Below, in pieces: positions 5,214-58,020 of a stretch of DNA of 64,000 bases. Origin of the DNA: Candidatus Zixiibacteriota bacterium (GTDB lineage Bacteria; Zixibacteria; MSB-5A5; WJJR01). The stretch lies in assembly GCA_036397555.1 (NCBI GenBank), contig DASWIS010000031.1, positions 80,052 to 144,051 on the forward strand, given 5' to 3'. The number at the start of each line of letters is the position of its first letter. The stretch's first letter is position 1. The notes beneath the pieces are model-generated. The model saw only the letters and a list, made by a program, of their open reading frames with translations, was not told where the DNA came from and searched no databases. The translations under genes were made by a program, and so were the position numbers.

Positions 5214-6004
5214 TGAGCAATCCCGAACTCAAAGACGCTGTCTGGCAGGTGCTTGAGCAGGCCGCCCGTCATCAGGAAAGCGGCGGCACGGTGCACTCCG
5301 ACTATATCATCCGCAAGTTCCCGCAGGTGAATGAAATCGAACTCATCAACGCCATCGGCGAGTTGGTCGAGGATGGAAAGGTTACGGTCAAGGCCGCCAC
5401 GATCGACGCGCATGGAAACGCCACGGCCTATCACATCCATGTGCGCGACGTCGGGGACCGTCCCGATGCGCCGCCGACTCGCGGGCCGCGCATCGCCTCC
5501 GGCAGCGTCGGCTTCGGGCCGGGCTCCGGGCCGCCGCCGCCGGAGCAGAAGCCGCCCGCCGATGAACCGAAAAAGTCCGCGGACAGAGCCGTCGAGCAGG
5601 CGTCGCGTGTCAGTGTCGGTTTTGGCGGCGATCAGCCCGCGCTGTCGAAGCAACCGCCGCCGGATGATCGTTCGGATCGTGTCAACGTCTCCGTGCCGGG
5701 CACCGTCGACAAGCGTTCGGCGATGCAAATGGAAGCCGAGCAAAACTTCGCCGACGAGATGGCGTCGTTCTTCGCCGAATTGGAGATGGCGGAAACCTCC
5801 GACCCCGATGCCCGCGACGAACTGACCAACCAATTGATGGTGCTGATGGCGATGTTCCAGATGGGCGAGACACGCGACTTCACCACCCCGATCAACAAAC
5901 TCGCCGCATTGAAGACCCGCGTCGCGCATGTCGTCCCCGACCTCGTCGGCGACTATGTCCTGCTCGTGCAGACCGCGGTCCGTGCGTGGCTGGGGCGGGT
6001 GTAA
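5213..6004 (+). CDS. hypothetical protein (structured N-domain, Pro/Gly-rich disordered linker, helical C-domain), translationally coupled to comM
   Basis: ATG at 5213 overlaps the comM TGA (5211-5213) as ATGA; low-complexity GPGSGPPPPEQKPP linker. Confidence 0.5.
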   Translation: MSNPELKDAVWQVLEQAARHQESGGTVHSDYIIRKFPQVNEIELINAIGELVEDGKVTVKAATIDAHGNATAYHIHVRDVGDRPDAPPTRGPRIASGSVGFGPGSGPPPPEQKPPADEPKKSADRAVEQASRVSVGFGGDQPALSKQPPPDDRSDRVNVSVPGTVDKRSAMQMEAEQNFADEMASFFAELEMAETSDPDARDELTNQLMVLMAMFQMGETRDFTTPINKLAALKTRVAHVVPDLVGDYVLLVQTAVRAWLGRV

Positions 6005-6020
6005 TGCCCGCTCAGGGATT

Positions 6021-6044
6021 CGTAGGGTGGGCTCAGCCCACCAA
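6021..6044. repeat. REP-like palindrome, GTAG-type (CGTAGGGTGGGCTCAGCCCACCAA)
   Basis: 5' GTAG followed by a perfect 7-bp stem GGTGGGC/GCCCACC with a TCA loop. Sits immediately 5' of the RAYT-like pseudogene; a near-identical copy is at 23461-23484. Confidence 0.55.
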
Positions 6045-6056
6045 TCCTTGACGGCC

Positions 6057-6609
6057 ATGTCAACAGATCGACGCCTCCGCATTGCAGGTGTGACGGATTT
6101 CTTCACTGTGGCGACCCATCAACATGGGCCGATCCTGACGCTCGACAGAATTCCGGAAATCTTGCTTGGGAGTTTCGAGAAGCACGGGATCGGGCGGAAT
6201 TCGACATGCTTGCGCCCGGCATCCTTCCCGAACACCTCCATTGCATATGGAAGATGCCCTCCGAATACTCCGACCTTTCCCGTATCTGGGCGCTCATCCA
6301 ACTTGGGCTCATCGAGCACATCAAAGACTTTTCAATCGTTATGAACCGTTCAGGAATGCAAGCCAGATCTCGAGTCAGCTGTGGCTACTGTGCAGTTTTG
6401 CAAAGAGATTCTGGGAAAACGCGATCCGTGACGATGAGGACCTGAGTCAGCACGTGGATTACGCTCATTACAACCCTGTCAAACATGGGCTTGTGACGAA
6501 TCCCCCGGAGTTGTCATATTCCAGCTTTCGGCGGTATGTTGACCAAGGGTATTATGAGTACGATTGGTCCGAAGAACTCGAGTTGACTGTCGAGGTCGGA
6601 TCGGAGTGA
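6057..6609 (+). pseudogene. REP-associated tyrosine transposase (RAYT, IS200/IS605 Y1 family), disrupted by two frameshifts
   Basis: Three consecutive reading frames carry consecutive RAYT segments. From ATG 6057: MSTDRRLRIAGVTDFFTV. Next frame: ARDRAEFDMLAPGILPEHLHCIW (HUH motif HLH). Third frame: RFWENAIRDDEDLSQHVDYAHYNPVKHGLV (catalytic Tyr region). Low GC (43% in a sampled line). Confidence 0.65.
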
Positions 6610-6644
6610 TAAACGCGAGCGGTGTTTCGCAGAATGGGACATCG

Positions 6645-6661
6645 GTGGGCTGAGACCACCT
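6645..6661. repeat. degenerate REP-like palindrome (GGTGGGCTGAGACCACC) 3' of the RAYT pseudogene
   Basis: GGTGG...CCACC arms around GCTGAGA; resembles the 6021-6044 REP core but lacks GTAG. Confidence 0.3.
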
Positions 6662-6697
6662 GACGAATCCTCTGCGGATGTTCCTATACCATTGAGC

Positions 6698-8095
6698 ATG
6701 AACAAACATCAGCGCACCATAAAGCAGTCCGCCGAATTCGCCGGCATCGGCTTGCACACCGGCAAGCCGTCGACCATCAGCTTTCATCCGGCCCCGGTCG
6801 GGACCGGGATTGTGTTTCGTGTCCCGTCCAACGGCGGCACCGTCGATCTGAAGGCGGACATCGGTTCGGTGATCGATGTTCATCGCGGTACGACCATTGC
6901 CCAGGGCGAAGCCAAGGTGCACACGGTCGAGCATGTGCTCTCGGCGCTCGCCGGGTTGGAAATCGACAACTGCGTCTGCACGCTCGACAATGTCGAGCCG
7001 CCGATCGGCGATGGTTCCAGCAAGCCGTATGTCGACGTGCTGCTGAAGGCAGGAATTCAGGGACAGGACGAGCCGAAGGTCTACTTCGAGCCGGATGCGC
7101 CGATCAACTACTCCGAACCGGGACGCGGCGTCGATCTGATCTGTCTGCCCTCCGACGATTTCCGCGTCACCTACATGGTCGATTACCGCAATCCGGCGCT
7201 CGGCACGCAATACACGACGTTGACATCGCTGGACGAGGAATACGCCCAGGAATTCGCCCCGGCGCGGACCTTCTGTTTTCTTTCGGAAGTCGAGCAGCTC
7301 CACCAGCAAGGACTGATCAAAGGTGGCTCGCTTGACAACGCCATCGTCATTTGCGATGACGGCTACACGCAGGCCGATGCCGAACGTCTTGGACGGATTG
7401 TCGGAATCGACAAACCGTTGCCGATCGGCACCAACGGCATCCTCAACAACGGCGATCTGCGTTTTCCCAACGAGCCGGTGCGTCACAAAGTGGTCGATCT
7501 GATCGGCGACTTGGCGTTGATCGGCCGTCCGCTGAAGGCACACATCCTGGCCGCACGCTCGGGGCATGCTGCCAACGTCGCCCTGGCCAAACGCATCAAG
7601 GCCGAAATCGACAAGAAGAAGTTAGGCGAGAAATACAAAGCGCCGACAACGGGCGGCACGCTCCAGCTCGATGCCGAGGCGATCGCGCGCATCCTCCCAC
7701 ACCGTTACCCGATGCTGCTGATCGACCGTATCCTCTCGCTGGAACCCGGCAAGCATGTCACCGCGATCAAGAATGTATCCTTAAACGAACCGTTCTTCAG
7801 CGGCCACTTTCCCGATCATCCGATCATGCCCGGCGTGCTGATTGTCGAGGCCATGGCACAGGCGGGGGGATTGATGCTGCTGAACATGATCCCGGAGCCG
7901 GAAAAGCAGGTTGTATACTTCATGGCCATCGACGATGCCCGTTTCCGCAAACCGGTGCGTCCCGGTGACCAATTGCGCTTCGAGGTCGAAATGCTGTCGT
8001 TCCGACGCGGCATGTGCAAGATCGCCGGCAAGGCATATGTCGATGACGCGCTGGTCACCGAGGCGACGATGATGGCGATGCTGATGGAACGATAA
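6698..8095 (+). CDS. lpxC-fabZ: bifunctional UDP-3-O-acyl-GlcNAc deacetylase / 3-hydroxyacyl-ACP dehydratase (LpxC-FabZ fusion)
   Basis: The N-terminal 300 aa align to LpxC (HTVEHVLSALAGLEIDN, HKxxD); the C-terminal 150 aa is a FabZ hot-dog (LPHRYPMLLIDRI, GHFPDHPIMPGVL). ATG at 6698 sits just inside the TTG-initiated ORF at 6692. Confidence 0.9.
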   Translation: MNKHQRTIKQSAEFAGIGLHTGKPSTISFHPAPVGTGIVFRVPSNGGTVDLKADIGSVIDVHRGTTIAQGEAKVHTVEHVLSALAGLEIDNCVCTLDNVEPPIGDGSSKPYVDVLLKAGIQGQDEPKVYFEPDAPINYSEPGRGVDLICLPSDDFRVTYMVDYRNPALGTQYTTLTSLDEEYAQEFAPARTFCFLSEVEQLHQQGLIKGGSLDNAIVICDDGYTQADAERLGRIVGIDKPLPIGTNGILNNGDLRFPNEPVRHKVVDLIGDLALIGRPLKAHILAARSGHAANVALAKRIKAEIDKKKLGEKYKAPTTGGTLQLDAEAIARILPHRYPMLLIDRILSLEPGKHVTAIKNVSLNEPFFSGHFPDHPIMPGVLIVEAMAQAGGLMLLNMIPEPEKQVVYFMAIDDARFRKPVRPGDQLRFEVEMLSFRRGMCKIAGKAYVDDALVTEATMMAMLMER

Positions 8096-8107
8096 GGGGC
8101 CGACGAC

Positions 8108-8929
8108 GTGAACACGCAGGCCACGACCATGACCGATCCCGGCGTTCGGCGGACCCAGACCGTAGTCCACCCGACTGCGATCGTCGATCCGCGCGCGCGC
8201 CTCGACATCGGCGTAACGGTCGAGCCCTATGCGATCATCGAAGGGGATGTGAGCATTGCCTCCGGGACTGTCATCGGTTCGCACTCCCGCATCGGCCCCG
8301 GAACGCACATCGGGCACGATGTCCGCATCTCGCACGGCGCCGTCGTCGGAACTGAGCCGCAGGACTTGAAATACGCCGGCGAGCCGACCGCGACACACAT
8401 TGGCGACCGCACCATCATCCGCGAATGCGCCACGGTGCACCGGGGCACGGCCAAGACCGGCCGGACCATTGTCGGCGCCGACTGCATGATTATGGCGTAT
8501 GCCCATGTCGCGCACGACAACACGCTCGGCCATCATGTCATCCTCGCCAACACGGTCCAGTTGGGCGGGCATGTCACGCTCGGCGATTGGGTGGTGATCG
8601 GCGGCGGCACGGTCGTCCATCAATTCACGCTGATCGGCCCCCATGCCATGGTCGGCGGCGGTTTTCGCGTAACTCAGGATATCATGCCGTATGTCGTTGT
8701 CGGCGGATACCCGTTGAAAACCCTGTCGCTGAACCGTGTCGGACTCCAACGTCGCGGATTCGCTCCGGACAAGATCGCCGAGCTGTCGCGCGCGTTTCGT
8801 ATTGTCTTTCGTTCCAAACTTAATTTTTCACAGGCCGCCGACGAGCTGCAACGCGCCATGCCCGACAGTGCCGTAGCACAACAGATGCGGGCATTCATCC
8901 TGCAATCCGAGCGCGGTCTTGTCCGCTGA
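8108..8929 (+). CDS. lpxA: acyl-ACP--UDP-GlcNAc O-acyltransferase
   Basis: Left-handed beta-helix hexapeptide repeats; VHPTAIV and DLKYAGEPT motifs as in LpxA. GTG 8108 with AAGGGG upstream; ATG 8126 is an alternative start. Confidence 0.85.
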   Translation: MNTQATTMTDPGVRRTQTVVHPTAIVDPRARLDIGVTVEPYAIIEGDVSIASGTVIGSHSRIGPGTHIGHDVRISHGAVVGTEPQDLKYAGEPTATHIGDRTIIRECATVHRGTAKTGRTIVGADCMIMAYAHVAHDNTLGHHVILANTVQLGGHVTLGDWVVIGGGTVVHQFTLIGPHAMVGGGFRVTQDIMPYVVVGGYPLKTLSLNRVGLQRRGFAPDKIAELSRAFRIVFRSKLNFSQAADELQRAMPDSAVAQQMRAFILQSERGLVR

Positions 8930-23464: not shown

Positions 23465-23484
23465 GGTGGGCTCTGCCCACCATT
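23461..23484. repeat. REP-like palindrome, second copy (GTAGGGTGGGCTCTGCCCACCATT)
   Basis: Identical to 6021-6044 except the loop base (A to T) and one 3' base. Overlaps the atpC stop. Confidence 0.55.
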
Positions 23485-23509
23485 CTGCCGCAAGTGCAGC
23501 AACGCATGT

Positions 23510-23549
23510 GCCACTGACCCCTGTGCCCCGAAGGGGTATGGTCAGTGGC
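23510..23549 (+). terminator. strong hairpin downstream of atpC (perfect 10-bp inverted repeat GCCACTGACC / GGTCAGTGGC with a nested CCCC-GAA-GGGG)
   Basis: Read directly. No U-run follows, so it may be a Rho-independent-like or processing structure rather than a canonical terminator. Confidence 0.35.
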
Positions 23550-23708
23550 CTTGAAAGACACCAATGACTAAAATCAGTGGCACACAAGAACGATTCGCTC
23601 GGTGGTCCACAGCTTACTGCGGGATGGCCGGACTCGCGAATTGAATCTCTCCCAGAGCAGAACTGTGGGGCACCGGTGCGAGCGATCTTGATTTGTGACT
23701 GTTACGTC

Positions 23709-24218
23709 TCAATCAGTCTTGTTATACATCTCTACTGCTGTGACATGGCGATCATAGGAAGATCTCAGCCGCGATACTTCCTGACTGAAGGTAATCAGAT
23801 TACCTCTTGGTCGTTGAATCAGATTGAACATTTCCTTCTGATCGAGGTACGCCCCCTCTAGTTCGCTTGTGACGGTCTTAGAGCATCTTCTGCCATCTCT
23901 GAATTTTCCTATATGGATTGGGATTGTATCAAGTATACCCCCGATCGCGTTCAATACCGAATCGGGTGTGAGTTTTCTATAGTCTTGAGAAAACCACGAA
24001 GGGCCGTATTCTGACCAAATGTAGAGATACCCCGATAAGACCGTTGATTGGATGATGTCTACCATTTGCAGATCCGTGGTGACGATGAGACACCAATTCT
24101 CGCATGAAAGAGAATCGCCCCGTCGTAAAAGCTCCTTTACGCTCTCATCGGCGGATGCCCGGATCGGTAAACTTGCCAAACAGCTAATGACCAGCGGGAT
24201 GAGTAATTTGTACTTCAT
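23709..24218 (-). CDS. secreted hypothetical protein (signal peptide MKYKLLIPLVISCLASLPIRASA), low-GC orphan
   Basis: ATG with GGAAGGA 8 nt upstream on the minus strand; AT-rich codon usage unlike the neighbours; no family recognised. Confidence 0.5.
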   Translation of the reverse strand: MKYKLLIPLVISCLASLPIRASADESVKELLRRGDSLSCENWCLIVTTDLQMVDIIQSTVLSGYLYIWSEYGPSWFSQDYRKLTPDSVLNAIGGILDTIPIHIGKFRDGRRCSKTVTSELEGAYLDQKEMFNLIQRPRGNLITFSQEVSRLRSSYDRHVTAVEMYNKTD

Positions 24219-24452
24219 GGGGTGGGTCCTTCCTGAGGGTTCTACTTTCTAATTAGTATGCCACTCATGGCAGCCACTTAGCAACCGCTCTTGCCACTAA
24301 TAGTCGGTAGATGACTACAGGCTCTCCGTCTTCTTTGGTCTGCCGCGTGAAACCGAAGCCGCCCAAATCACTACAGTTGAACTGTCTACTTGACGAGGAG
24401 GTTTACATAATGTACGCTAGGACCAGCCTCATTTGTCATGCGTTCACGCAAA

Positions 24453-25067
24453 TCACCGATTCGTCAGCGCTTCTCCGATAGCCTCAATCATTCGACCGAC
24501 CAGCTTGAACCAATCCCGCACTATCTCCTGATTCATCCAGATATCAGTTCCGACGCACAGATCCGGTATCCTTTTGGCCAGATCGTCGTCGACGCGACCG
24601 TCATTATGCGCAATGCAGTTGCGCAGTGCACAGAAGTTACTCAATGCATCCCTGTCCTCGTCGGAGAGAACCTGGGGCTGTACGCCGACGCTATGTAATA
24701 GATCGTCCGCGGATTTCCAATTCGGCTTTTCCGCTCCCGGGATACGTTTTGCTTGCGCTTCCACAAGACCCTTCAACCGAAGGAAGAAAGCGTCGCACAC
24801 CTCTCGCTCTACTCGTTCGAAGTCTGAGTCCGACTCGAAGCACACATGTCCGAACCAGAAAGTGTATTGCTTGGGAGGCTGCTCTTTCAGCGGCATCAGC
24901 GCGATTTCGAAAGCTACAAGTGCCACCTCCAAGAGACGATGGCTTTCGCGCGACCATTCAGCTACCTCCTCAGACGGTCTTGCCAATGTCTCCCCCAGTT
25001 CCTTCTGAGTTCTTTCCGCTGCCCCATCGGCCGGCTGCCCGTGTACGAGTTGTTGTGTGCCCGCCAC
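24453..25067 (-). CDS. HEPN-like protein candidate (C-terminal ALRNCIAHND = Rx4HN motif; about 200 aa, RiboL-PSP-HEPN-like size)
   Basis: GTG start (no in-frame ATG near the N-terminus); balanced composition; R-x4-H-N motif at residues about 146-152 of 204 inside a predicted helical C-terminal domain. Confidence 0.45.
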   Translation of the reverse strand: MAGTQQLVHGQPADGAAERTQKELGETLARPSEEVAEWSRESHRLLEVALVAFEIALMPLKEQPPKQYTFWFGHVCFESDSDFERVEREVCDAFFLRLKGLVEAQAKRIPGAEKPNWKSADDLLHSVGVQPQVLSDEDRDALSNFCALRNCIAHNDGRVDDDLAKRIPDLCVGTDIWMNQEIVRDWFKLVGRMIEAIGEALTNR

Positions 25068-25172
25068 ATTTGTGGCGGAATATCCGTGCCTCTCGACTCC
25101 CGATGTCCGATATGGACCTGCCCCGAATCATACTCGATCAGAGGCAGGAACTCATCGGTGTTTTTGCACATC

Positions 25173-25201
25173 AAAAAAAGGGGAGGCCCTTCGGCCTCCC
25201 C
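25173..25201 (-). terminator. intrinsic terminator of gdhA (GGGGAGGCC-CTTC-GGCCTCCCC followed by a U-run on the minus strand)
   Basis: Perfect 9-bp GC stem with a 4-nt loop, flanked by A7 on the plus strand (T7 on the minus strand) 48 nt after the gdhA stop. Confidence 0.8.
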
Positions 25202-25248
25202 CTTCGTTACGGCGAGATATTGTTGCAGGCTTGTCCGCCCAAGGCGGG

Positions 25249-26775
<1,527 letters not shown>

Positions 26776-40868: not shown

Positions 40869-40943
40869 CGTCCCCAACGAGATTCGAACTCGTGTTACCG
40901 CCGTGAAAGGGCGGTGTCCTAGACCGGGCTAGACGATGGGGAC
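40869..40943 (-). tRNA. tRNA-Glu (anticodon TTC)
   Basis: The reverse complement reads GTCCCCATCGTCTAG...CGCCCTTTCACGGCG...GGTTCGAATC...TGGGGACG. Cloverleaf with 7-bp acceptor; anticodon loop CTTTCAC; no encoded CCA. Confidence 0.8.
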
Positions 40944-53165: not shown

Positions 53166-53243
53166 TGGGGTGGGTGAAGGGATTTGAACCCTTGGCCCCC
53201 AGGGCCACAACCTGGTGCTCTAACCAACTGAGCTACACCCACC
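53166..53243 (-). tRNA. tRNA-His (anticodon GTG) with genome-encoded G-1 and 3' CCA
   Basis: The reverse complement reads GGTGGGTGTAGCTCAGTTGGTTAGAGCACCAGGTTGTGGCCCTGG...GGTTCAAATCCCTTCACCCACCCCA. 8-bp acceptor including G-1:C73. Confidence 0.85.
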
Positions 53244-54053: not shown

Positions 54054-54126
54054 GTACCCCCGGCAGGATTCGAACCTGCGACCCACAGCTTAGAAGGCTG
54101 TTGCTCTTCCTATTGAGCTACGGGGG
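54054..54126 (-). tRNA. tRNA-Arg (anticodon TCT)
   Basis: The reverse complement reads GCCCCCGTAGCTCAATAGGAAGAGCAACAGCCTTCTAAGCTGT...GGTTCGAATCCTGCCGGGGGTA. 73 nt; anticodon loop CTTCTAA. Confidence 0.8.
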
Positions 54127-54163
54127 CAATGGCGGCTTTGCCGTTCAAGTCTGTGTGCAACAA

Positions 54164-54237
54164 TCGGGGTGAGAGGATTTGAACCTCCGGCATCTTGCTC
54201 CCAAAGCAAGCGCGCTACCAGGCTGCGCTACACCCCG
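54164..54237 (-). tRNA. tRNA-Pro (anticodon TGG)
   Basis: The reverse complement reads CGGGGTGTAGCGCAGCCTGGTAGCGCGCTTGCTTTGGGAGCAAG...GGTTCAAATCCTCTCACCCCGA. 74 nt. Confidence 0.8.
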
Positions 54238-57932: not shown

Positions 57933-58020
57933 GCCGAAGTGGTGGAACTGGCAGACACGCTGTGTTCAGGGCGCAGTGCTCTTACGGGCGTGAGGGTTCG
58001 AATCCCTCCTTCGGCACCAA
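57933..58020 (+). tRNA. tRNA-Leu (anticodon CAG) with encoded CCA
   Basis: GCCGAAGTGGTGGAACTGGCAGAC...CTGTGTTCAGGGCGCAG...long variable arm...GGTTCGAATCCCTCCTTCGGCACCA; 88 nt. Confidence 0.85.

Follow-up and report, generated by a model that had tools for sequence, protein, structure and literature searches.

The locus studied here is a two-gene islet of low GC content (positions 23465–25248) lying between the genes for the ATP synthase epsilon subunit and glutamate dehydrogenase, within a 64-kb window, by which we mean the whole stretch of DNA analysed. The flanks consist of housekeeping genes, with ATP synthase alpha, gamma, beta and epsilon on one side and glutamate dehydrogenase, peptidyl-prolyl isomerase and DXP reductoisomerase on the other. 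At 52.2% GC, compared with 60.5% for the window, the islet is the lowest 1.8-kb segment of the 64 kb (z −4.2), which bears out the low-GC islet described in the original prediction. GC3 is 0.60 in the HEPN-like gene that is our subject and 0.51 in its neighbour, a 169-aa ORF, versus 0.68–0.82 in the flanking genes. The islet was probably acquired horizontally. A 13-nt inverted repeat flanking it was considered as a pair of transposon ends and rejected, about one such repeat being expected by chance in a region of this size (a rough estimate).

The glutamate dehydrogenase gene upstream ends in an intrinsic terminator (25176–25205, minus strand; a 13-bp stem with 8 GC pairs, then a T-run), and the HEPN-like gene is therefore isolated from upstream transcription. 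Between this terminator and the probable start codon stretches a structured 5′ leader of 189 nt (24987–25175, minus strand), for which the MFE is −69.6 kcal/mol and z is −3.29, with 2 of 200 shuffles folding as well. This structure is not family-wide, upstream z values in the homolog loci ranging from −3.7 to +2.3, and neither Rfam families nor repeats were found at the locus.

An ORF of about 200 aa with a GTG at its 5′ end had been predicted at 24453–25067; it is indeed present, on the minus strand, comprises 204 codons and encodes the sequence ALRNCIAHND. The GTG start itself is doubtful. Homologs are mostly 173–187 aa long and start 7–17 residues ahead of a conserved Trp, residues 1–30 of the 204-aa product (whose numbering is used below unless stated otherwise) have a pLDDT of 55–61 and align with no homolog, and the GTG at 25067–25065 falls within the 3′ arm of a hairpin (25078–25061). 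Homolog lengths, low pLDDT and hairpin overlap all favour an in-frame TTG at 24986, corresponding to L28 of the annotated ORF, so that the annotated start is probably wrong and the likely CDS (24453–24986, minus strand) encodes a single-domain HEPN-like protein of 177 aa, for which AlphaFold2 gives a pLDDT of 96.3 and a pTM of 0.89. The N-terminal extension of the annotated ORF (24987–25067, minus strand) is then probably untranslated leader.

Metagenome annotations of DNA that is 100% identical to this gene sometimes call antisense ORFs instead, and we therefore tested the strand directly. Across seven homologs, only the proposed minus-strand frame is free of stops, and pairwise differences at codon positions 1, 2 and 3 are 0.44, 0.34 and 0.66, the signature of a coding sequence. 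The minus-strand ORF, whose homologs match at E values of 1e-40 to 1e-57, encodes a conserved protein and evolves under purifying selection. That the plus-strand antisense ORFs (202/208 aa and 86 aa) are the real gene in its place, as some annotations would have it, is vanishingly improbable, since their frames carry one to eight stops across the homologs against none on the minus strand, the substitution pattern by codon position refutes the antisense reading, the minus-strand product has a confidently predicted fold, and the 208-aa ORF would cross the terminator of the upstream gene. Automated annotation thus sometimes miscalls the strand or the start of this gene.

The family to which the gene belongs is very rare, comprising about 40 proteins in all. 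Word seeding against 5.8 billion protein clusters recovered 10 proteins, exhaustive comparison of a profile with 1.84 billion representatives recovered 21, and a broader profile (A2) found approximately 25, none of which carries a Pfam annotation. Among 185,579 species genomes the family occupies one locus, in an uncultured Ignavibacteria MAG, whose homolog also has TTG as its start codon, and JGI metagenome contigs contain three occurrences. No relatives were detected among IMG/VR viral contigs; tblastn searches gave nothing against GenBank phages and, against plasmids, no match other than a remnant with a broken frame on Streptomyces megaplasmids (E 0.04). The HEPN-like gene is identical in sequence in every metagenome contig of the source organism that was examined.

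The residues that first drew attention to the protein, R149-N-C-I-A-H154 (codons 24606–24623, minus strand; R122 to H127 in the 177-aa numbering), form an Rx4H motif that lies where helix 3 ends and is predicted to be catalytic; the arginine and histidine had originally been misnumbered as R147 and H152. On its own such a motif says little. Within the stop-free stretches of 150 aa or more that the six frames of the window contain, we counted 192 instances of Rx4H, 19 of R[NDH]x3H and 5 of RNx3H; the Rx4H motif alone is not above chance, carrying little information in GC-rich, Arg-rich DNA. The putative HEPN signal comes instead from conservation. The claim that RNCIAHN fits the HEPN Rx4-6H signature accordingly holds in that the motif is present and its R, N and H are invariant, and fails in so far as the bare motif was meant to carry the argument. 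In a 26-sequence alignment that extends to relatives at only 16–23% identity, R149, N150 and H154 are the only invariant columns (26/26), followed by G157 (25/26). Among the 22 full-length members, E89, E103 and F94 are invariant and R97 is retained in 21, while position 107 is K in 17 members, R in three and H in three. Two blocks are invariant in the core family, ERExxDAFFLRLKG and CALRNCIAHNDG. The first of these corresponds at our locus to a family-specific block in helix 2 (R85–K99, codons 24771–24815, minus strand; ERExxDAFFLRLK), which includes the invariant E89, and the C-terminal end of the same helix carries E103-x3-K107 (codons 24747–24761, minus strand), an Ex3[KR] motif. The Rx4HxY form of the catalytic motif can be read in three distant members only (P0016, P0017 and P0019).

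Two AlphaFold2 models, with pLDDT values of 89.4 and 96.3, agree on four long helices (residues 31–61, 80–107, 136–155 and 180–203). They place RNxxxH at the end of helix 3 (136–155), in the C-terminal half of the protein, as had been anticipated when the motif was assigned to a helical C-terminal part. Helices 2 and 3 are separated in both models by residues 108–135, which form a loop and a short helix (120–126). Between helices 1 and 2 sits a beta-hairpin (residues 66–77, codons 24837–24872, minus strand; DSSP strands 66–70 and 73–77 in both models, pLDDT >90), an unusual position for an HEPN insert, inserts in this superfamily being typically found between helices 2 and 3 (PMC3710099, Anantharaman et al. 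2013). The protein is predicted to be one helical domain of approximately 177 aa, for which reason the earlier suggestion that its length matches two-domain RiboL-PSP-HEPN proteins does not hold; no L-PSP domain accompanies it.

As described in PMC3710099, HEPN domains have an up-down fold of four helices, arranged as two alpha-hairpins, and often carry inserts between the second and the third helix; the conserved Arg is directly followed by a polar residue (N, D or H), and helix 2 contains another conserved acidic residue, which typically falls inside Ex3[KR]. Our protein shows four long helices in both models and an insert at residues 108–135; R149 and H154 are conserved in 26 of 26 sequences with helix 3 ending at 155, a position of Rx4H that matches the published description (PMC3710099). 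The polar residue N150 follows the Arg in all 26, and E103 (22/22), together with K107, lies within predicted helix 2 (80–107). With helices, insert, motif position, polar residue and acidic residue all present, five published HEPN features are found together.

Curated models and structure searches remain below their thresholds. No Pfam, NCBIfam or PADLOC model reaches threshold for the protein, a Foldseek search of 350,542 PDB chains gave no significant match, and so no significant profile or structure match ties it to a recognised HEPN family; we therefore infer its superfamily membership rather than regard it as formally demonstrated. Sub-threshold matches are mostly to HEPN families: in Pfam, HepT-like (0.041), as well as MAE_28990, LA2681 and Apea; HEPN_RiboL-PSP in five of the ten core members (best 6e-4) and in P0019 (2.6e-4) and P0029 (0.0098); in NCBIfam, HepT_toxin (0.2); and in PADLOC, RTasHEPN (0.0072 and 7.9e-4) and Csm6 (0.021). 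The Foldseek ranking is headed by 1ylm (E 0.065, probability 0.93), and HepT/HEPN toxin chains account for six of the first 10 matches and 12 of the first 50, with target-normalised TM-scores of 0.41–0.52. The structural check proposed with the original prediction thus yielded the expected four helices, the motif where helix 3 ends, and HepT/HEPN chains at the top of the ranking, without the significant match. No unrelated family gave a confident profile match, all matches lying below threshold. PDB sequence profile searches matched only a designed repeat protein, which is spurious, and no HEPN chain. Two further routes to known families were tried and rejected: P0029, considered as a bridging sequence towards Pfam-annotated RiboL-PSP-HEPN proteins, is a singleton in the homolog search, and annotated plasmid HEPN proteins beside MNT genes, used as hhalign references, are HEPN-T clade members whose motif is degenerate, and they score no better than negative controls.

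These results bear on whether the protein might be a four-helix protein unrelated to HEPN, in which RNxxxH would do something else, for instance bind a ligand or a metal, and the matches to HEPN families would be a coincidence driven by the motif. Every database match is below threshold, the HMM alignments mostly span some 35–70 residues around the motif, and Foldseek TM-scores of 0.38–0.52 are typical of generic helical bundles, designed bundles being among the matches. We nevertheless consider such a coincidence improbable, given that five independent published HEPN features occur together, that three independent HepT-type crystal-structure families appear in the top 10 of 350,542 chains and that no alternative family recurs among the weak matches.

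Within the HEPN superfamily, the best structural, Pfam and NCBIfam matches are to the HepT toxins of type VII HEPN/MNT TA systems (PF01934, NF047751; 5yep, 6m6u, 7ae8, 1ylm), likewise small single-domain HEPN proteins with Rx4H at the end of helix 3. Our protein differs from them in scoring 14 bits against a cut-off of 23.5 for the Pfam HepT-like model and 11.5 against 60 for NF047751, in having no adjacent co-oriented MNT gene, in being approximately 40 residues longer with extra inserts, and in the Asp of RNCIAHND at H+2, where the HepT-type Rx4HxY has Tyr. A HepT/MNT module was rejected on three of these grounds, namely the missing adjacent MNT gene, scores far under the cut-offs and the Asp at H+2.

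RiboL-PSP-HEPN (PF18735) is the Pfam family most often matched among members (five of ten core members plus P0019 and P0029); in both families the motif has the R[ND]xxxH form and a single terminal helix comes after it. The HEPN-like protein scores 11.6 bits against this model, whose gathering score is 28.4 bits, and the matches of all members fall below 28.4. RiboL-PSP-HEPN proteins are fused to endoRNase L-PSP and have a ParB operon partner (PMC3710099 Table 1); a two-domain protein of this type was rejected here, there being a single domain, no L-PSP domain and no ParB partner. The Abi HEPN proteins (AbiD/AbiF/Abi_2, AbiJ, AbiU2, ApeA) resemble ours in standing alone and carrying RNxxxH-type motifs, and differ from it in being generally larger or endowed with extra N-terminal domains. 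Single-gene HEPN Abi proteins are stand-alone defence effectors, often found on mobile elements (PMC3710099 Table 1). The Abi_2, AbiJ and AbiU2 models gave no match, one distant relative has a weak Apea match (0.053), and no abiF-type RNA motif was found at the locus.

The genomic surroundings of the family vary from locus to locus, and roughly half of the neighbourhoods can be classed as related to conflict or to mobile elements. P0004, at the edge of a Mu-like prophage, is flanked by a Mu-type transposase and an HTH-S24 repressor and adjoins a DUF4238 gene; the gene after P0003 encodes a DUF6602 protein with a match to PD-(D/E)xK/NucC-like nuclease models (2.8e-27); P0019 is found within a HicA/RelE island, P0042 beside a FitA/PIN pair and SbcCD-like genes, and P0006 has an integrase fragment nearby. 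At the remaining loci, the source locus included, a small insertion sits where a housekeeping operon ends, as in Ignavibacteria (L008), where the gene lies just downstream of sdhAB; at L001 the neighbours are aminotransferase and oxidoreductase genes. It is possible that the gene belongs to a small mobile cassette which has inserted again and again at the 3′ ends of strongly expressed housekeeping operons (ATP synthase at the source locus and sdhAB in Ignavibacteria).

The frequent proximity to core metabolic operons (ATP synthase and glutamate dehydrogenase at the source locus, sdhAB at L008, metabolic genes at L001) would also suit a non-toxic HEPN-type protein that processes or binds RNA in a housekeeping or accessory role, outside any conflict system. 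Some HEPN proteins, such as Las1, process RNA, and the unchanged sequence in all examined contigs of the source organism would be in keeping with a benign function. Against this speak the very sparse and patchy distribution, with one locus in 185,579 species genomes, the foreign GC and codon composition, and neighbourhoods that differ per organism and frequently include TA, prophage or nuclease genes. Since sparse distribution, foreign composition and variable neighbourhoods make up the pattern of a mobile accessory gene, not that of a housekeeping one, we regard a benign role as unlikely.

If the protein is a toxin or a defence effector, the question of a partner arises. The original prediction had noted the absence of an MNT-type neighbour, which we can confirm, the neighbours being glutamate dehydrogenase, the 169-aa ORF and the ATP synthase genes. 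In 13 of 14 other loci an MNT (NTP_transf_2) neighbour is likewise absent, and the sole one, at L006, is convergent. The 169-aa ORF (23709–24218, minus strand; GC 46%), which resides in the same islet and had been put forward as a possible partner, belongs to no family in Pfam, NCBIfam, PADLOC or PHROGs. It always adjoins the HEPN-like gene in the source organism. Because its product has an export-type N-terminus and it is absent from all other loci of the family, we do not regard it as the partner. In an all-versus-all BLASTP comparison of ORFs within 3 kb at nine core loci, only the gene itself and its shadow frames matched; neither the tenth core locus (P0004, represented by a gene table, not DNA) nor the four sister-clade loci have a neighbour in common with the others. 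No neighbour gene is conserved across the 14 loci. Of the two arrangements originally envisaged, a solitary system fits these data better than a novel-partner one, no partner being conserved among the 14.

The gene could still encode the toxin of a two-part TA system with an unrecognised antitoxin, be it a fast-evolving upstream ORF, an ncRNA as in AbiF/RCd22, or the 169-aa neighbour. Several loci do have an unrelated small or medium-sized ORF directly upstream (45 aa at L001, 56 aa at L020, 134 aa at L007 and 180 aa at L003, with an ORF abutting the start codon at L027), the 5′ leader of the source locus is unusually structured (z −3.3), AbiF is known to be neutralised by RNA, and no terminator is predicted between the HEPN-like and 169-aa genes. 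However, the upstream ORFs (45, 56, 134, 180 and >82 aa) have no detectable similarity to one another, and the source locus, L006, L008 and L021 have no same-strand ORF upstream. The export signal of the 169-aa protein would suit a cytoplasmic antitoxin poorly, and this protein is present in no other locus. An RNA antitoxin was rejected too, as no Rfam family or repeat was found and leader structure varies between loci. The two-part arrangement is therefore, in our estimate, not a likely one. Separately, the 180-aa protein upstream at L003, which contains EIRNIVAHN, was examined as a possible paralogue and rejected, with an hhalign probability of 4%, the motif alone aligned and no Pfam match.

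With these alternatives weighed, we favour, with moderate confidence, the view that the protein is an RNase of the HEPN type which works on its own as a toxin or defence effector. The core of the original prediction, a candidate HEPN-type RNase or toxin in an acquired islet with no MNT partner, is supported by conservation, predicted helix layout, genomic context and low GC content. The closest parallel in lifestyle is HepS ('HEPN Solo'), an abortive-infection protein of the Salmonella Gifsy-1 prophage (PDB 9OIJ/9OIK), which is made constitutively as an autoinhibited tetramer, is opened by a phage tail-tip protein, a trigger that it binds via a beta-sheet, and then cleaves tRNA anticodons; it carries an R100-N101-x3-H105 motif and has no conserved gene partner (PMC13043305). 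Like HepS, our protein is a small stand-alone protein with a single HEPN domain and an R-N-x3-H motif, without a conserved partner or inhibitor gene and with variable, often mobile-element-associated neighbourhoods; at 177 aa it falls under the upper limit of 250 aa taken for HepS-type solo proteins, and it combines a single predicted domain with the lack of a conserved partner in 14 loci. The two differ in the position of the motif (residue 100 in HepS versus 122 of 177 here), in the beta-hairpin between helices 1 and 2, a feature of the HEPN-like family, and in their hosts, HepS being found in Enterobacteria and the HEPN-like family in uncultured environmental bacteria. Neither tblastn against phage records nor the PDB sequence profile search disclosed sequence similarity to HepS, no ORF in the Gifsy-1 LT2 record matches the published HepS residues, and 9OIJ/9OIK are not among the top 50 Foldseek PDB matches, the presence of these entries in the searched set not being certain. 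HepS is the best model of a solo HEPN protein that can both sense and kill.

HEPN proteins are typically dimers that join two Rx4-6H motifs in one active site (PMC13043305). In the mechanism that we propose by analogy, two copies of the protein would come together as a pair, their RNxxxH motifs jointly building a composite RNase site that is independent of metal (from PMC3710099, PMC13043305), in which His would activate the 2′-OH and Arg and Asn would hold the phosphate or base, leaving a 2′,3′-cyclic phosphate product. Since no antitoxin gene accompanies the HEPN-like gene, the oligomeric state of the enzyme itself probably keeps it inactive; on the same ground, the HepS model is the most economical one. 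A trigger, for example a phage protein, would then switch the enzyme on, and the active form may cut tRNA, rRNA or mRNA, so that growth stops. Overall, the gene would represent a solo sensor-effector element of the abortive-infection or toxin type, like HepS, ApeA and the single-gene Abi HEPN proteins. More tentatively, the family could constitute a structurally distinct new class of self-contained HEPN immune sensor-effectors, with the conserved hairpin and the invariant helix-2 ERExxDAFFLRLK surface serving as a trigger-binding or autoinhibitory module, by analogy with the beta-sheet that HepS uses to bind its trigger; a protein of 177 aa would then recognise infection and also cleave RNA, with no partner needed. 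We consider this reading possible, if doubtful.

What we describe is a rare, unmodelled single-domain family (~177 aa) of the HEPN superfamily that escapes the present models of Pfam, NCBIfam and PADLOC. The kind of system is a known one, the solo HEPN lifestyle having been described already; what is new is the family itself, and its rarity limits its general importance. The family stands out by being extremely rare and compact, by its beta-hairpin between the first two helices, and by a strongly conserved helix-2 surface that might take part in sensing or autoinhibition. Solo HEPN proteins such as HepS and ApeA have recently been shown to provide complete one-protein immunity by sensing a phage component and shutting down translation, and the present family adds a very compact, unmodelled solo HEPN example from uncultured environmental bacteria. 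With its unusual insert and the strongly conserved second surface, it could serve as a minimal model in which to study autoinhibition and triggering.

The low-GC islet that holds the HEPN-like gene also carries an ORF of 169 aa (window 23709-24218, minus strand; GC 46%), whose N-terminus resembles a signal peptide (MKYKLLIPLVISCLASLPIRASA/DE) with a lipobox-like VISC and an AxA site. It matched nothing in Pfam, NCBIfam, PADLOC or PHROGs and, judged from its sequence, is an orphan predicted to be exported. The HEPN-like gene has a 189-nt leader (window 24987-25175, minus strand) 5′ of its probable TTG start. The fold of this leader is more stable than that of shuffled controls (z −3.3) and contains a long hairpin as well as one of 7 bp spanning the annotated GTG; no Rfam family matched the leader, and among the homolog loci it shows no conservation. 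An imperfect 13-nt inverted repeat (window 23579-23591 and 25049-25061, GGCACACAAGAAC / GTTGTTGTGTGCC) encloses the islet almost exactly. Since about one such repeat would be expected by chance in a region of this size, by our own rough estimate, it is probably coincidental.

For DNA that shares 100% identity with the window, some metagenome pipelines annotate antisense ORFs (202 and 86 aa) instead of the HEPN-like gene. These calls (window 24438-25252, plus strand; also in the compared loci L022, L025 and L026) are an annotation artefact, because long shadow ORFs arise in GC-rich DNA. The five tRNA genes of the window (40869-40943, 53169-53242, 54055-54237 and 57933-58016), three of which form a cluster at 53-54 kb, are ordinary and unconnected with the HEPN-like gene.

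Several homologs lie among genes of toxin–antitoxin or defence type. The homologs P0016, P0017 and P0019 form a subclade with the motif RNxxAHNYG, which is the HepT-type Rx4HxY. P0019 (L027 250-807) is surrounded by a toxin–antitoxin island of HicA/DUF1902 and RelE/HTH genes, and an upstream ORF of >82 aa has its end exactly at the start codon of P0019; an MNT gene was not seen around it on the 3-kb contig. An orphan MNT-type nucleotidyltransferase of 105 aa (L006 3994-4311, minus strand) is oriented convergently with respect to the P0008 homolog, whose stop codon is 42 nt away, and no HepT gene belonging to this nucleotidyltransferase appears in the gene table of the locus. As this is a single case, a functional link between the two genes is unproven.

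The locus of the P0003 homolog comprises genes at L003 5387-5929 (plus strand), 6001-6531, 6609-7514 and 7604-8182. The protein encoded 5′ of the homolog (180 aa) carries its own RNxxxH motif, EIRNIVAHN; it had no match in Pfam, and hhalign gave a probability of 4% against the HEPN-like family. On the 3′ side, a DUF6602 protein matching models of PD-(D/E)xK/NucC-like nucleases (2.8e-27) is accompanied by a methyltransferase. The locus may constitute a small defence island of several genes, two of them HEPN-like and arranged in tandem.

On the Streptomyces sp. NBC_01590 plasmid NZ_CP109331.1 (L017 4001-4289) and on two related megaplasmids, tblastn gave a marginal match (E 0.04; 31% identity over residues 78-176). 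Broken over two frames and lacking an intact ORF, it may represent, in Actinomycetota, a relative of the family that has decayed.

In the P0004 locus (JGI 3300075153), read from its gene table only, without DNA, the homolog has a Mu-type transposase/MuB/Gam/Lar block on one side and an HTH-S24 repressor on the other, with a DUF4238 protein of 391 aa following; this position is moron-like within a Mu-like prophage. The prophage itself adjoins a cluster of cell-division genes (Methyltransf_5 and PBP). The homolog of an Ignavibacteria MAG directly follows, on the 3′ side, sdhA and sdhB, which encode succinate dehydrogenase (L008 2165-5522). This parallels the window, where the ATP synthase operon has the HEPN-like gene at its end. 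The clear cases, only two in number, hint that the 3′ end of a highly expressed operon is a favoured landing site of the HEPN-like gene.
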